Below, piece after piece: positions 38,488-60,815 of a stretch of DNA of 64,000 nt. Within the stretch, counting starts at the first letter, position 1, and each line of letters opens with the position of its first letter. The stretch spans positions 103,044,001 to 103,108,000 of the forward strand of contig CM075977.1 of the NCBI GenBank assembly GCA_038087875.1, in the 5' to 3' direction. A program made the translations under genes and the position numbers. Origin of the DNA: Malacoraja senta (lineage: Eukaryota). Below the pieces are notes generated by a model. It was not told where the DNA came from, did no database searches, and was given only the letters and a program-made list of their open reading frames with translations.

Positions 38488-39576
38488 CTTATTTGTGTGT
38501 CCTGTATGCATGTTCTATGCTGTATGTATTATATTTATATATTGTTTTACATAAATCTCTGTTCCTCTACCTTCCTAACTTACTACATTTAAAAAATCCA
38601 AAATATTTGACTCCCATCTACCTGAATCTGCCGTGCCCACTTCATCTATCCACAATCCTCGACAACGTTGTCCTATTCTACACTATTCACTATGCCATGA
38701 ATGCCCTAAGAATAAACAACAAGCCTTGTGCAACTAATTCATAAATATAATGGGCAGCTGAGGTTCGGCAATGGATCTCCATGCACAGGGTTCTCTGGAG
38801 CATTTGGCAGTTCTAGCAAATGTTCAAGTCCAGTGCACTCAAGGGCTGGTCTTCATGAACAATTTAAATTAGACAGCAAATGTGGACAATGTCAAAGTGA
38901 CAAAAACATTACCCATTCCTTGTTTTTTATTTATTTGTAGTGATCCTGAGTTATAGCATTGCATATATCACAGTAAACCCTCATTTTAATGGACCTCTTT
39001 ATAACAGATTTTGGTAATAGTGGACGGACCTACCGATCACAGCCAACGCCATCCCCGACTCGCACCGCCTGCCCTGCTGCCAGCACCACTAGCGACTTAC
39101 CTGCACTCCAGCCACCCACAGGCCATGACCATTGACTCCGCCGATCCCCGCCTCTCCCCCGGCAGCCAGCAGGTTGGGACCATCAACTCACCTGGATTCC
39201 TGCCCAGTTCCGGACCAAGAGTCTGAAGAAGGATCTCAACCGGAAATGTCACCTATCTATGTTCTCCAGAGATGCTGCCTGATCTGCTGAGTTACTTCAG
39301 CACTTTGTACCCTTTTGCATATTAACCAGCAACTGCAGTTATTAATTTCTACTACTTATGAAATGATAATACCATACATGGTTACAGCTCATCTTTGGCA
39401 ATAATACACACCATCCCCTCTACACCCCCATGGTCAGTTATCACAAAGGTTTACGGTGCTGTACGATTAAATCAAGTGAAGCCTGGTGCTTTGAAAATAC
39501 TTTATCTGTGATCTCTTGAAAAGCGTAATTCCTAGTTCAAACATGAGAAGGAAAAAAAACATCCCAAAATGGTTAA

Positions 39577-39785
39577 TGTAGAGCCGTGCATGTTCCTTTA
39601 ACATAATGACCTCACCACTACTAACCACTCCCCATTATCTTCAGTATAATTGTAATCTTCCCACCCCTAGCTCGCTCTCTAGCTCCGGTAACGGACCACG
39701 AACAGCTAGGGCAATATGTGTGTATACGACTACAATGTATGCAATAAACTAAGAGTGAAGACTACGTGTTTGACAAGTCTTTACA
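39577..39785 (+). repeat. 5' LTR (209 bp) of the Gypsy element
   Basis: TGTAGAG...CTTTACA termini, TATAA near 39646, AATAAA at 39743. Followed immediately by PBS TGGTGTCA (tRNA-Leu type). Confidence 0.88.
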
Positions 39786-42700
39786 TGGTGTCAAAAAGTT
39801 GAACCCTGCGTCTCCTGTTTATCGGGTTTGTTTTCTTTTCTCCAAGTTTTTATTTTTCCTTTCAAACCCTTTATGTACTATGGCCAGCTCGTGTCGTAAG
39901 CCTGACATTCTGGTGTTTGACTCCGACATCGTTCACCGGTGGACTGTCTTCCGGCGCGACTTCCAGCACTATGTCGCCATCGCTCATCCTAATGTTACCC
40001 CTGCGGTTACAGCACATCTGCTCCTCAACCTGGCTGGCCCGGAGGCCATGGAACATTTTGAATCTTTCGAGTACGCCGATGGTGAGCATGCAGAGGACCC
40101 GATATGTCTCACCAATAAATTTGCCGCGCTGTGTGACATTCCCACCAATTGCATTATAGAGCGGTTCAAGTTTTTCAGCAGGCGCCAGAAACCCGGGGAG
40201 CACATCGACACTTTCATTGCCTCGTTGCGTCACCTGGCTCGGCGTTGCCGCCTGGACACGTTGACCCCCGACCAAATGGTCAGAGATGTCCTAGTTCACG
40301 GTCTACAGGACGTGAAGCTACGGGCAGAGCTTCTGAGAAAGCCGGACCTCACTTTAAACGACGCTTTGCATGCCTCTCGCATGGCTGCTGCTGTCGACTC
40401 CGTATCTCCCCCTGAGGCTCAAGACATTAACTATGCCGGTGCTGCTGAACGCCCGCGGCGCGATGGCCCGCCACGCCAGCGTAGCACTCCCGCGCCCGCG
40501 AGGGCTAACCCTCGTCGATGCCCAAACTGCAACTTTGTCAGTCATCAATTTAATGTTTGCCCTGCGCTGGGTAAGACTTGTAATTTTTGTAAGAAGCTTA
40601 ATCACTTCTCCGCAGTGTGCCGTTCCAGGGGCCAGCCTGTCTCTGCTCAGAGAAAGAGTCTACACAACCTGACTGCTACTGATAGTGTTTATGGCTCCGA
40701 ATACCTTTCAGTCGAACTCCCTGATTCTGATAACAGCTCCTCCCATGATGAATCGCTTGTTTTTTCAGTCTTGGGTGCACATGCTTTGATAGCTGATCCA
40801 TCAGTTAGAGTTACTGTGAATGGAATGACCTTTACTGCCAAGGTAGACACGGGGGCGTTTGCGAACGTTATGTCGTTAAGCCTCTTTCAGCAGATAAGAT
40901 CTGGTGAGAACATTACTGCTGATGACTCCCGCCTCCATGCATATGGGGGGAGCATGCTATTCCCGGTCGGCAAGGCCACCCTTATCTGCACAGTTCTGAA
41001 GGCCTCTCGGCTCCTCTCTTTCCTCCTGCTGGAATCTGAGAATGTTACTCTGTTGGGCGCCAGTGCGTGCCAGGACCTCGGTTTGGTTTCCTTCCACCGC
41101 GATATCCACCTGGTGCAGACCCCCATGGATCCCATGTGCGAATACCCCGACCGTTTTGACGATGTATTGGGCAAACTACCCTGCAAGTACGAAATCGAGG
41201 TGGACCCGGAGGTCCATCCGGTCGTCCGCCCGGCTCACCGCGTCTCCTTTGCTATGAAGGACAGTGTGGAGTCGACTCTGCGCCAGATGGTGGCCATGGG
41301 CATCATCAAGGAGGTGAGCGATGCCACCCGGTGGGTCTCCACCATGGTCGTTGCTGCTAAGAAGGACAAGAGTGAGATTCGGATCTGTATAAACCCCAAG
41401 GACCTAAACCTTGCCATCAAGCGCCGGCACTACCCCATGCGAACGGTGGAGGATGTCACTGCAAAGGTTGGCCCAGCCACCGTATTCTCTGTCCTCGATG
41501 CCAAGAGCTCTTTCTGGCAGATTCCGCTGGATGAACGTTCATCTTTCTTGACCACATTTGGTACACCTTTCGGCAGGTTCCGTTTCCTCCGCATGCCTTT
41601 CGGGATCAATTCTGCCAGCGAGGTTTTCCAGCGCACCATGGAGCAGCTATTTGCAGGTCTGCCGTGTGCTATCATCGTCGATGACATCTTGGTGTACGGG
41701 AGGGACGTCGCTGAGCACGACCTCCACCTCCGCCAAGTCCTGGATCGGGCTCGGGAGATCAACCTCAAACTGAACCCCAAGAAGTGCCGCTTCCGCGTCC
41801 CAGAGGTCACCTACGTGGGCCACGTTTTTACGGCTGAGGGTCTGAAACCAGACCCGCAGAAGACAGCTGCGGTCTCTGGGATGCCAGCTCCGGTCAACGT
41901 GCCCAGCCTGCAGCGCTTCTTGGGCATGGTGAACTACCTGGGGAAATTCATTCCTGACCTCAGCGAGCTGAGTGCGCCCCTGGGGGAACTGACCAAGAAG
42001 GACACTGCCTGGGTTTGGTACCCGCTGCATCAGGCAGCCTTCGATGACTTGAAATCCCGGCTGGTTCGCACCCCCACTCTCAAGTTCTTCGACTTAAAGC
42101 GCCCCATCGTCCTCACCTGCGATGCCTCAAGTTTCGGTCTCGGTGCCGCCTGCCTGCAACTCTACGACCGCCTGCAACTACCTGTCTCCTACGCCTCCCG
42201 CACCATGACTCCAACCGAGCAACGCTACGCTCAGATCGAGAAGGAGCTCCTTGCCGTGGTGTTTGCCTGCTCGAAGTTCAAGGACTACATTCTGGGTAAC
42301 ACTTTCACTATTGAAACCGACCACCAGCCGCTGGTCACGATCTTGAACAAACCGATCCACGTGGCTTCTTCCCGTTTGCAGCGTATGATGCTGCAACTCC
42401 AACGCTTCACGTTTCAAATCGTTTACCAAAAGGGCAAGGACATGTTTGTGGCCGACACGCTGTCCCGCGCACCGCTGGCTTCTACTGCCCGCCACCCGTA
42501 CGAGTCATCCGACCTGATGGTGCTAAACGTCAACTTCGTGCCTTCCCGGCAGATGCAGTCCCTGATTCAGCACACTGCCAATGATCCTGCCCTGCAACAG
42601 CTTATAGACGTCATCCGTCGTGGCTGCCCTGACCGTCGCTCATCCTTGCCGGCTGGTGCTGCGCCCTACTTCCTAGTCCGGGATGAACTTGTGCTGCATG

Positions 42701-43307
42701 ACGGCGTGGTGGTGAAGGGCCACAAGGTTGTGGTGCCCGCTGCGCTGCGGGACCACTATTTCCAAACTGCCCACTGCGGCCATCCCGGATCCGATGCCAC
42801 CCTGTCCCAGGCCCAGAGCCAGTTTTATTGGCCCGGCATGGCACAGGACATCCGGGAGAGGGTCTCTGCCTGCTCAACCTGCAATACCCTCTCTCCACAT
42901 CAGCAACGCCAGCCACTCCTGCAACAGCCTGCCCCCGCCCTGGCGTGGATGGCGGTCGCTACGGACATATTTGAGTGGCGTGGCAAACATTTCCTGGTCC
43001 TTGTCGACTCCTACTCCAGCTGGTTCGAGATTGAGCGTCTGCGCTCCCTCACTTCTGCTGCGGTCATTGGAAAGCTTAAACGCCTCTTTGGGACCTTTGG
43101 CATTCCTGTGACTGTGCAGTCTGACAACGGGGGCCAGTTCTCGAGTGCTGAGTTCCGCGCCTTCGCCGCCGCCTACAACTTTCGCCACATCACCAGCAGC
43201 CCTGAATACCCGCAGAGCAACGGCCTTGCTGAGCGCGCTGTCCGCAGTGCCAAGGAACTGCTGGAACATTGTAGACTTTCGCATTCTGATTTTTATCTGG
43301 CTCTACA
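39577..43307 (+). mobile_element. Young Ty3/Gypsy retrotransposon lacking its 3' LTR, flanked by a GTTAA TSD
   Basis: LTR, PBS and an uninterrupted gag-pol. GTTAA at 39572-39576 and 43308-43312. Confidence 0.92.
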
Positions 43308-43332
43308 GTTAATGCTCTACGGTCAGCACTAA
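39880..43332 (+). CDS. Gypsy Gag-Pol polyprotein (Gag with two Cys/His knuckles, aspartic protease, RT, RNase H, C-terminally truncated integrase), about 1150 aa
   Basis: CPNCNFVSHQFNVC and CNFCKKLNHFSAVC; VDTGA; LDAKSSFWQ, RMPFG, IVDDIL; CDAS, EKE, TDH; HCGH..CSTC; DIF, SDNG, SNGLAER. Domain order PR-RT-RH-IN is Gypsy. First plausible ATG after the PBS. The last ~8 codons come from flanking DNA. Confidence 0.93.
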   Translation: MASSCRKPDILVFDSDIVHRWTVFRRDFQHYVAIAHPNVTPAVTAHLLLNLAGPEAMEHFESFEYADGEHAEDPICLTNKFAALCDIPTNCIIERFKFFSRRQKPGEHIDTFIASLRHLARRCRLDTLTPDQMVRDVLVHGLQDVKLRAELLRKPDLTLNDALHASRMAAAVDSVSPPEAQDINYAGAAERPRRDGPPRQRSTPAPARANPRRCPNCNFVSHQFNVCPALGKTCNFCKKLNHFSAVCRSRGQPVSAQRKSLHNLTATDSVYGSEYLSVELPDSDNSSSHDESLVFSVLGAHALIADPSVRVTVNGMTFTAKVDTGAFANVMSLSLFQQIRSGENITADDSRLHAYGGSMLFPVGKATLICTVLKASRLLSFLLLESENVTLLGASACQDLGLVSFHRDIHLVQTPMDPMCEYPDRFDDVLGKLPCKYEIEVDPEVHPVVRPAHRVSFAMKDSVESTLRQMVAMGIIKEVSDATRWVSTMVVAAKKDKSEIRICINPKDLNLAIKRRHYPMRTVEDVTAKVGPATVFSVLDAKSSFWQIPLDERSSFLTTFGTPFGRFRFLRMPFGINSASEVFQRTMEQLFAGLPCAIIVDDILVYGRDVAEHDLHLRQVLDRAREINLKLNPKKCRFRVPEVTYVGHVFTAEGLKPDPQKTAAVSGMPAPVNVPSLQRFLGMVNYLGKFIPDLSELSAPLGELTKKDTAWVWYPLHQAAFDDLKSRLVRTPTLKFFDLKRPIVLTCDASSFGLGAACLQLYDRLQLPVSYASRTMTPTEQRYAQIEKELLAVVFACSKFKDYILGNTFTIETDHQPLVTILNKPIHVASSRLQRMMLQLQRFTFQIVYQKGKDMFVADTLSRAPLASTARHPYESSDLMVLNVNFVPSRQMQSLIQHTANDPALQQLIDVIRRGCPDRRSSLPAGAAPYFLVRDELVLHDGVVVKGHKVVVPAALRDHYFQTAHCGHPGSDATLSQAQSQFYWPGMAQDIRERVSACSTCNTLSPHQQRQPLLQQPAPALAWMAVATDIFEWRGKHFLVLVDSYSSWFEIERLRSLTSAAVIGKLKRLFGTFGIPVTVQSDNGGQFSSAEFRAFAAAYNFRHITSSPEYPQSNGLAERAVRSAKELLEHCRLSHSDFYLALQLMLYGQH

Positions 43333-43799
43333 TTAACAGCCTAAAATAAAACCTAAAAGGGTGTGAGAAGAAAACTCAATGTCACTAAATCTGAAAATAA
43401 TTGTCCCAATCCGAGAAGGACTGTTCCTTAACTGAACCCAGGCATGTGTTCTGCTATTCCTTGTAAATAGGTTTGTAAAGAGTGCAGAGACACTGAGGAA
43501 AAAGCTCCTGGACTAACAATGATCAGCAAGAGGTGAATGCACTGGTTGAGGTAAACAAGCCAGAGTAGGAGGGGAAGCCATGTCATGAGAATCTAAAACT
43601 AGCAATGTGCAAAAGTGGATCTCTATTCAATTATTATTACCTATTTTTGATTCCGTTTTTAAAAATCAATAATAATGTAAAATATATATTTTCAGATAGA
43701 CCAGTGTATCATGACATAAATAATTTATTTGTCCATCTATTTTAGTTAACTATTTACAGTTGTTAATGTTATTAAATACAATCTGGCAGGCAAAACGTA

Positions 43800-44100
43800 T
43801 AGAAGTGTGAAAACGCACACCTCCAGATTCAGGGACAGTTTCTTCCCAGCTGTTATCAGGCAACAGAATCACCCTACCACAAACAGAGAGCAGTGATGAA
43901 CTACTATCTATTGGTGACCCTCAGACTCTCCCTGACCGGACTTTGCTGGTTCTACCTTGCACTAAACGTTATTCCCTTATCATGTATCTGTACACTGTAA
44001 ATGGCACGATTGTAATGGTATTGTCTTTCCGCTGACTGGATAGCACACAACACATGTTTTTCACTGTACCTTGATACACGCGACAATAAACTAAACTGAA
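43800..44100 (+). mobile_element. Rex1/Babar 3' end
   Basis: KTHTSRFRDSFFPAVIR, then TTTCACTGTACC..GACAATAAACTAAACT. Confidence 0.8.
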
Positions 44101-57289: not shown

Positions 57290-58689
57290 GTAGGTTTTCT
57301 CTTTCACTTCTCTACCCCCCCCCCTCCCTTCCCATCCTATATCCCAAATACCGTTATCCCTCAGAACCACCTGCGCTGAGTAAGAGGGAAAAATATTTAA
57401 TCGGGAGATGTGTATGATTTTTTTTTTCGAGATGCTAAGAAACTGGTAGAATGCATTCGACTTGCTTGGGCTGGCGTTCAATGCAGTAATCGGCTTAGGC
57501 TCAATAAATATTCTTGCAGAATGCTCAGTCGGATACGTGAGTTGCCTCATATATCCCTTAACTATTTGAATTTCGTGCAGTCTCTTATTAGAACCCAGCT
57601 AACATAGATTTAAGGGGAGGGAGGGAATAAGGGGATATCCTGGGTTAAAATGCTTAATGACGGTTTACTGTGATGATGCTTCATNNNNNNNNNNNNNNNN
57701 NNNNNNNNNNNNNNNNNNNNNNNNNNNNNNNNNNNNNNNNNNNNNNNNNNNNNNNNNNNNNNNNNNNNNNNNNNNNNNNNNNNNNNNNNNNNNNNNNNNN
57801 NNNNNNNNNNNNNNNNNNNNNNNNNNNNNNNNNNNNNNNNNNNNNNNNNNNNNNNNNNNNNNNNNNNNNNNNNNNNNNNNNNNNATTTTGCCTTGGGTAC
57901 AATCCGAACTGCAGCAGACTGAATAGGACCCACGGGTCTGTGCCTGGTTGACTTTAAGTTGTATTTTCTTGGTGGTTTTAAACACGCTTCTTGTTCTCCC
58001 ACTTGTGTTCTCCCACTCTACATTTTTTGCACACGCCTCAAGTTTGACTTTGCCAAGGAGCGCCACGTTATAGGACACACGAGGTTTGCTTGGAGGTGCA
58101 AATGTAACTCGGCCCGTCCCTTATAATTATGTGAGAATGGAAGCCATTCCACCTCATGTACCGGTCTTCAGAACCAGCATACTCACCCCCAACCCAGCCA
58201 CCCCCACCCAACACAACACTTATAGCTGTAGAATGGAAGCAAGGTTCAACTTTTGCTGTACCATAAAGTTTCCCCCGAAGACAGCTTCGAATAGGAAAGG
58301 CTAGAATTAAAGGTGAACACAGTAATTATTTATACAGCCATTTAACGCTGGTGACGGATTAGTTTAAACCGATGCCTTTGAGATCGCTATTCTCATCAAT
58401 GTGTTGTTGCGTGGAAGCGCTTATAATCTTGCCATCTCACTCTGGAGAGAGTAATCAAATTGCTGTTTTACAACCAATGCAACTAATTTCCTGACAAATT
58501 ATGATCACGGGGTTGACTATTAACTATTTCAGCATTGTTCTTAGTTCCCAGCCGTCTCACATATCCCCACGTACTCAAATCCCCAGTGCAAATACACACA
58601 GACCCTGACTGTTTATCACACAGATTTTCAGCACATACCGATAAACACAAAGCGTGCACATGTACATACGTCACAGCCCACGCAGCCAG

Positions 58690-60815
58690 AAACAAAACCC
58701 CACACACACACTCAACCCCCCCCCACACACCCACCCCCCCACACACACACCCCACACCCCCCCCCCACACACACACACACCCAACCCCACACACACACCA
58801 ACCCCCCCCACACACACACCCACCCCCCCCCCCCCCACACACACACACCCAACACCCCCCCCACACCACACCCACCCCCCCACACACACCCAACCCTCCA
58901 CATACACACCCAACCCCCCCCACACACACCCACCCCCCCCACACACCCACCCCCCCACACACACACCCAACCCCCCCCCCACACACACACCCAACCCCCC
59001 CCACACACCCCACCCTCCCACACACACCCAACCCCCCCACACACACCCAACCCCCCCCCCACACCCACCCCCCCCCGCACCACACACACCCACCCCCCCA
59101 CACACACCCAACCCCTCCACATACACACCCAACCCCCCCCCCACACACACCCACCCCCCCCACCACCCACCCCCCCACACACACACCCAACCCCCCCCCA
59201 CACACACACCCAACCCCCCCCACACACACCCACCCTCCCACACACACCCAACCCCCCCACACACACCCAACCCCCCCCCCACACCCCCCCCCCCGCACCA
59301 CACACACCCAACCCCCCCCACACACACCCAACCCTCCACATACACACCCAACCCCCCCCCCACACACCCCCCCCCCACACACACACCCAACCCCCCCACA
59401 CACCCCCCCCCCACNNNNNNNNNNNNNNNNNNNNNNNNNNNNNNNNNNNNNNNNNNNNNNNNNNNNNNNNNNNNNNNNNNNNNNNNNNNNNNNNNNNNNN
59501 NNNNNNNNNNNNNNNNNNNNNNNNNNNNNNNNNNNNNNNNNNNNNNNNNNNNNNNNCACACACACACCCAACCCCACACACACACCCAACCCCCCACACA
59601 CACACCCAACACCCCCCCACACACACACACACACCCCCACACACACACACCCAACCCCACACACACACCCAACCCCCCCCCCACACACACACCCCACCCC
59701 CCCCCACACACACACACACACCCAACACCCCCCCCACACACACACCCACCCCCCCACACACACCCAACCCTCCACATACACACCCAACCCCCCCCCACAC
59801 ACACCCAACCCCCCCCACACACACACCCAACCCTCCACACACACACCCAACCCTCCACACACACCCCAACCCCCCCCCCCACACACACACACCCAACCCC
59901 CCCAACCCCCCCAACCCCCCCACACACACACACCCAACACCCTCCCACACACACACAACCCTCCACACACACACCCAACCCCCCCCACACACACACACAC
60001 CTAACCCCACACACACACTCAACCCCACACANNNNNNNNNNNNNNNNNNNNNNNNNNNNNNNNNNNNNNNNNNNNNNNNNNNNNNNNNNNNNNNNNNNNN
60101 NNNNNNNNNNNNNNNNNNNNNNNNNNNNNNNNNNNNNNNNNNNNNNNNNNNNNNNNNNNNNNNNNNNNNNNNNNNCACACTCAACGCCCCCCCCCACACA
60201 CACACCCAACCCCCACACACACTCAACCACACACACACACACACCCACACACACAACCCCCCCACACACACACCCAAACCCACACACACACACCCAACCC
60301 CCCCCACACACCCCCCCCCCCACACACACCCAACCCTCCACACACACACCCAACCCCCCCCCCACACACACACCCAACCCCCCCACACACACCCAACCCT
60401 CCACACACTCACCCAACCCCCCCACACACACACACCCAACCCCCCCACACACACCCAACCCTCCACACACTCACCCAACCCTCCCACACACACACACACC
60501 CAACCCCCCAACCCCCCCACACACACACACCCAACCCTCCACACACACACTCAACCCCACACATACACCCAACCCCCCCACACACACACACACCCCCCCC
60601 CACACACACGCCAACCTCCCCCCCCACACACACACACACCCAACCCCACACACACACTCAACGCCCCCCCCCCACACACACACCCACCCCACACACACTC
60701 AACCACACACACACACAAAACCCCCCCACACACATACCCAACCCCACATGCACACACACATATAACCCCCCACACACACAGTCAACCCCACATACACACA
60801 CCCAACTCCACACAC
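58690..60815. repeat. C/A-rich degenerate satellite (CACACACCCAACCCCCC-type units) containing two assembly gaps
   Basis: Visible directly. N runs at 59415-59556 and 60032-60175. Confidence 0.95.

Follow-up and report, generated by a model that had tools for sequence, protein, structure and literature searches.

The locus analysed here raises the question of how a Gypsy copy with a single LTR came to end inside its own integrase gene, in an exact reversed copy of its LTR start and between two intact copies of its target site. Two answers had been offered by the earlier note, namely that the integrase used an internal att-like end of its own gene, or that a later microhomology deletion removed the rest of the element. 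Comparison with other copies in the genome supported the deletion and went against a native internal att, as no CA occurs at this position in other copies; a weaker form of the att reading survives.

Structure of the truncated copy and its insertion site

In the window (the whole stretch of 64 kb that was analysed), the sequence showed a truncated Gypsy copy of 3,731 bp at 39577-43307, between two GTTAA. The positions reported before for the TSDs, the LTR start and the right end were all correct by sequence. The parts of the copy and its immediate flanks were the following.

39572..39576, + strand: left TSD GTTAA (sequence; single copy in the empty site)
39577..39785, + strand: 5' LTR of 209 bp, TG...CA, starting TGTAGAGCC and ending AGTCTTTACA
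39786..39793, + strand: start of the PBS, TGGTGTCA, directly 3' of the LTR
39880..43332, + strand: gag-pol frame of 1,150 aa, from the ATG at 39880 to the TAA at 43330-43332, with no internal stop
41359..41826, + strand: reverse transcriptase (RT) PF00078, aa 494-649 (Pfam)
42016..42408, + strand: RNase H PF17919/PF17917, aa 713-843 (Pfam)
42733..43212, + strand: integrase zinc finger PF17921 and core PF00665 (profile 11-102 of 102; Pfam)
43299..43306, + strand: GGCTCTAC inside the coding part of the integrase, native in the young subfamily and matching the reverse-complemented LTR start at 8/8 (family comparison)
43307..43307, + strand: terminal A, at this position in no other copy (family comparison)
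43308..43312, + strand: right TSD GTTAA (sequence, empty site)
43314..43320, + strand: flank GCTCTAC, direct repeat of 43300-43306 (sequence)

The gag-pol frame was indeed free of stops and retained the integrase core, as had been stated earlier; its last codons are host DNA and the C-terminal part of the integrase is missing. The order of RT, RNase H and integrase found by Pfam in pol is that of Ty3/Gypsy elements, and the family presented the features of this group (TG...CA LTRs, PBS, PPT and TSD of 4-6 bp), with a look that we take to be Mag-like. The window copy shares with Ty3/Gypsy (Metaviridae) the TG...CA LTR, the tRNA PBS, the gag-PR-RT-RNaseH-IN order and the 5-bp TSD, whereas it differs in having no PPT and a 3' LTR cut to 1 to 4 derivable bases (A to TACA), with the TSD kept. 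Neither a second LTR copy in the 64-kb window nor a purine run of at least 10 between 40659 and the break was found, in agreement with the one-LTR structure described earlier. Having neither two LTRs nor a PPT, the copy is a truncated member of its family, and it is predicted to be immobile. Elsewhere in the window, a long C/A-rich low-complexity tract with a GC skew near -1 and N stretches occupied 58677-60600.

The right end GGCTCTACA at 43299-43307 mirrored the LTR start TGTAGAGCC at 39577-39585, each 9-mer occurring once in the window; as noticed before, it is the exact reverse complement of the LTR start (9/9 to the U3 tip) and ends in CA. The LTR tips themselves form an imperfect terminal inverted repeat (TGTAGAGCC vs. 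the reverse-complemented end TGTAAAGAC, 7/9).

The site was checked with contigs of public runs aligned over the window, X10 and X11 having the same organism label and X3, X6, and X8 other labels. Contigs of four runs (X3, X6, X8, and X11) crossed the site without the element, and that of X11 joined 39571 to 43308, leaving one GTTAA. This indicated that the insertion is polymorphic, that no host DNA was lost and that the GTTAA at both ends is a true duplication; the empty allele with a single GTTAA that the earlier note had proposed to look for is thus present in X11. Run X1 yielded only scattered element pieces, none of them informative on this locus. The window copy is a young, insertion-polymorphic Ty3/Gypsy member, and its family is active. 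In such a young repeat family, with the nearest copies 97-99% identical to the window copy, an assembly error might have made the junction, whose letters all readings but this one predict identically. Misassembly is nevertheless extremely improbable: an independently assembled contig of X10, which may be the source sample of the assembly, bridged the junction with 0 differences (540 nt at a depth of 2.3, spanning 43277-43816 and reaching 31 letters into the element), the right flank was single-copy in an assembly search, with no flank paralogue or haplotig found in the assembly, and the empty alleles agree with the TSD.

The break site in other copies of the family

As an exact pattern, the LTR start occurred at 524 genomic places, part of which (160 loci) were fetched. 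Among 101 distinct copies with both termini, the TSD measured 5 bp in 89, 6 bp in 2 and 4 bp in 1, and there was none in 9. Two-LTR copies were of about 4.75 kb, and the window copy aligned to the first 3,727 of the 4,749 bases of one of them; thus, about 1.02 kb is missing, comprising the integrase tail, the 3' untranslated part, the PPT and the 3' LTR. In two-LTR copies, the PPT and a 3' LTR ending AGTCTTTACA were located ~0.82-1.02 kb beyond the break point. Five loci (L155, L157, L159, L161, and L178) represented a more distant sister family, with the PBS shared and a different and longer LTR.

The base following an exact 19-nt anchor at the break was scored genome-wide. All the 99 other places with this pattern read T (CTCTACT), and another base was found at the window only, so that the CA that the native reading asks of other copies was not there. 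Likewise, none of the 126 fetched loci that cover the break had CA, and the nearest copies read CTACT (28/29) or CTGCT (1/29). The family therefore offers the integrase no internal CA at this position. Recurrence of the junction at independent loci, the other sign proposed earlier, failed too: as an exact 20-nt pattern, the GGCTCTACA junction had a single place in 1.94 Gb and none elsewhere in the genome. Locus L082, which ends 5 nt further on, was discarded as a recurrence, having neither TSD nor CA.

These results bear on the headline of the earlier note, that a native att mimic within the gene, with CA at its end, had been cut and used by the integrase. A perfect 9-bp inverted end with CA and an exact TSD would agree with it, but a private point change plus an internal cleavage would be required, and the 8-mer is not conserved across subfamilies (GGCTCTAC in 46 of 126 copies vs. 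CGCTCTAC in the larger subfamily of 57). With CA in no other copy and a unique junction, this reading is already largely refuted, and we rate it as highly improbable. The 8/8 match of internal GGCTCTAC to the reversed LTR start is, as far as the letters tell, chance. Several copies sharing the inverted ends and differing in their TSDs, as expected of a TIR transposon, were not found in the genome, where the junction occurs once, and nothing suggests cut-and-paste movement of the window copy. Ginger DNA transposons also have a Gypsy-like integrase between TG...CA inverted ends (accessible text of PMC3601003 and PMC2836005), whereas the window copy has RT and an LTR, an accidental 9-bp inverted end, a cut integrase and a single copy. 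In the literature covered, which was incomplete, we found no description of an element with one LTR and an intact TSD in which an internal att forms the other end.

Probable deletion after integration and its alternatives

The copy probably integrated normally and then lost ~1.02 kb by a short-homology join of an internal TAC to the 3' LTR tip TAC(A). The TSD, the empty allele, the junction, the letters of other copies, the missing size and the homology are what was observed, and the order of events and the pathway are reconstructed from them. The final TAC of GGCTCTAC (43299-43306) is shared by both breakpoints as microhomology with the LTR end, the break matching the U5 tip exactly over 3 nt and at 6/8 overall (LTR end TTTACA). 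As two-LTR copies run ~1.02 kb on to this LTR end, the final A would come most simply from the true LTR tip, the lost 3' LTR having presumably ended with 43307. The deletion reading of the earlier note (internal CTAC joined to the LTR end TTAC(A)) was thus sustained by the shared TAC and by the donor A in two-LTR copies, which supply a 3' LTR ending AGTCTTTACA; the T at 99 places as against the window alone, the absence of CA from 126 copies and the single junction also speak for it. Against it, no undeleted allele with the whole 3' LTR before GTTAATGC was seen in the contigs of the two same-label runs, X10 and X11, and contigs drop rare variants.

With one real copy as ruler, 4,311 internal sites were compared with the LTR tips, and the break alone had a run of at least 6 to the reversed U3 tip (8/8). 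Against the U5 tip, 50 of these sites, including the break, had a 3-nt run and 10 had longer runs, and 3 sites combined the 3-nt run with 6/8; thus, plain microhomology would pick the break with a chance of ~1 in 50 to 1 in 3 and does not single it out, which counts against the deletion. This oddity is to be read as that of a finding chosen for its look from many windows. LTR tips are generally short inverted repeats (accessible text of PMC3601003), and with tips that are 7/9 inverted repeats a resemblance to the U5 tip brings with it a resemblance to the reversed U3 tip. Judged from the letters, the mirror look would follow partly from this end symmetry of the LTR itself.

As no other of these sites matches U3 at 8/8, the integrase may instead have accepted a hybrid end made beforehand. 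In that case, the deletion would have arisen in the cDNA, by a reverse-transcription slip from the internal TAC to the U5 tip, and the hybrid end GGCTCTACA, equal to a U3 att, would have been accepted by the integrase. Integrase specificity is set by the terminal 8-15 bp (accessible text of PMC3601003), a stretch over which the window right end is att-like (9/9 to the U3 tip), and selection by the integrase would explain the perfect inverted repeat; the window TSD has exactly the family length (5 bp), and 11 of 45 internal deletions in the family begin at the PBS and seem to have arisen during reverse transcription; several of them carry extra tRNA-like bases, and their TSDs are normal. However, the slip would have to hit the terminal 4 nt of the cDNA, a second locus with the junction is absent from the genome, and a change in the host flank, if real, would go unexplained. 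Moreover, another copy (L088, below) shows the same geometry with a 4-nt match only, so that a long att mimic is unnecessary. We regard a slip in the cDNA as possible but unlikely. If true, a one-LTR unit with identical inverted ends would be a snapshot of a Gypsy gaining transposon-like termini, and this step would connect Gypsy with Ginger-type elements.

The integrase could also have joined the U3 end alone, a host polymerase then trimming to GGCTCTAC, priming on the 5' tip (with addition of A) and copying host DNA. Aberrant HIV-1 and ASLV proviruses are precedents with one normal end and a second end truncated with short homology, either viral strand being copied (accessible part of PMC5041404). 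The 8/8 U3 match agrees with such an event, as do two family copies (L069 and L077) in which the left TSD is absent and 2-3 host bases are lost (16 and 20 host-repeat comparisons). In those proviruses, as far as the same source goes, host-made junctions give duplications or deletions unlike the normal short repeat, whereas the duplication in the window has exactly the normal length of 5 bp, which points to the integrase joining both ends; we consider one-ended integration quite improbable.

For normal integration followed by deletion, the following course may be proposed. The copy would integrate at both ends, giving the 5-bp TSD, and the break would most likely arise where the right LTR meets the host, either during integration or shortly afterwards. 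Repair would then proceed by a polymerase priming on short matches, perhaps with more than one template switch, copying A-GTTAA-TGCT, re-priming on GCT, copying CTAC and returning to host DNA at AC; the 7/9 inverted symmetry of the tips would then yield the perfect 9-bp inverted end as a by-product. Polymerase theta-type repair shares with the window copy a microhomology of 2-6 nt and a short direct repeat adjoining the junction (accessible text of PMC7165422 and PMC2943611), but the window deletion is of ~1 kb, whereas the reported class enriched for this polymerase is of deletions <30 bp (PMC7165422, in the part available), so that a loss of 1 kb would call for extensive resection or a different pathway. 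Two other schemes were rejected: fold-back copying of the 5' junction predicts TTAAC after the element, where GTTAA was observed, and joining the element straight to the flank GCTCTAC over the 7 shared nt would have lost the right TSD.

The element-end 7-mer GCTCTAC (43300-43306) recurs at 43314-43320, 6 nt into the flank, a repeat that was noticed after the fact; the 7-mer is present in 24 of 59,051 host 30-mers of the window. X8, of another organism label, reads GCTGAAC at 43314-43320, with GA at two of the positions, which also favours the deletion. The empty allele of X11 had 4 differences over 43308-43700, of which 2 were listed, both shared with other species, and 2 unlisted. As single-contig differences were listed only at least 31 letters from the piece end, the two unlisted ones are likely in 43308-43337; they may lie elsewhere in that stretch or in 43671-43700 (chance of two there ~0.04). 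If they are the two bases at which X8 differs, element sequence has overwritten the host flank, a hint of templated repair, and the event would have taken place in the chromosome. Templated insertions are described for polymerase-theta repair (accessible part of PMC7165422). Were the overwriting true, a same-species empty allele would read TGCTGAAC after GTTAA, and otherwise TGCTCTAC.

Deletions and one-ended copies in the family

The family is deletion-prone, which is a further point for loss after integration: the 160 loci contained 45 distinct internal deletions of at least 50 bp (54 rows minus 9 LTR-to-LTR artefact rows). In the 26 deletions without insertion, microhomology was of 0 (8 cases), 1 (6), 2 (7), 3 (2), 4, 6, and 7 nt (1 each), these lengths being approximate, as they were measured against a copy other than the parent. 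Locus L200 lost its 3' LTR and 873-881 bp of host, with CGG at the join, and three sibling loci with the same insertion retain the 3' LTR; deletion after insertion therefore occurs in the window copy's family. The insertion concerned (TSD GTATC; L188, L200, L025, L026, L029, and L250-L256) has been multiplied inside a large host repeat, with filled, empty, and deleted versions all occurring.

Fifteen copies that appeared one-ended were examined, of which 6 were scorable, 8 unscorable and 1 a nested insertion (L096). Four of the six scorable copies (L069, L077, L088, and L209) break within ~11 nt of the LTR end, which suggests the fresh integration junction as a fragile point and favours the deletion; on the opposite side, the other two are unanchored at the insertion site, and 8 of 15 were unscorable. 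L209 lost ~6 host bases (one comparison) and L078 ~714. L088 (4781-5063; G000:C1 about 303,921,400) is the mirror image of the window copy and counts for the same reading, with TSD CCGTG on both sides and a 5' LTR of which only TGTA is left, fused to a TGTA that is native to the interior and lies ~80 nt before the PPT. As an observation in its own right, L088 is a stronger candidate than the window copy for an internal TG/CA end that was truly used. When the one-ended copies were extended by 10 kb, 15 of 16 extensions contained no remainder, L096 being the nested insertion, and flank searches for the empty sites of L075 and L064 gave a short repeat or duplicates of the loci themselves, and nothing else.

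Deletion can give rise to a copy that has one LTR, TG...CA ends and an intact TSD, a trap for terminal-repeat annotation of which this locus is a clean, dated example. Its significance is modest, as the copy is real but an ordinary truncated member of an active Gypsy family. The family, active and polymorphic between samples, is more useful than the locus, and with several one-ended copies breaking at the insertion site, integration-junction repair in the vertebrate germ line becomes testable from genome data.

Other rearrangements were also present. L070 (4893-5115) consists of two LTR 5' halves joined in opposite orientations (1-135 and 96-1), with the rest of the element absent, and L063, L099, L147, and L158 carry internal inversions or inverted duplications with termini and TSD intact. 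In L104, L107-L110, L118, L121, L027, and L257-L268, a tRNA-like complement of 25 to ~50 nt follows the LTR instead of the usual short PBS. The primer tRNA of these copies is presumably Leu, and ARAGORN found no whole tRNA gene in 14 of the long-PBS loci. Such long tRNA-like PBS occurred at 182 places genome-wide, often joined directly to an internal deletion, and all 12 sampled places lay after an LTR-like CA end, in several different families. Apparently, copying ran on into the primer tRNA ahead of plus-strand transfer, and the products became fixed in the germ line.
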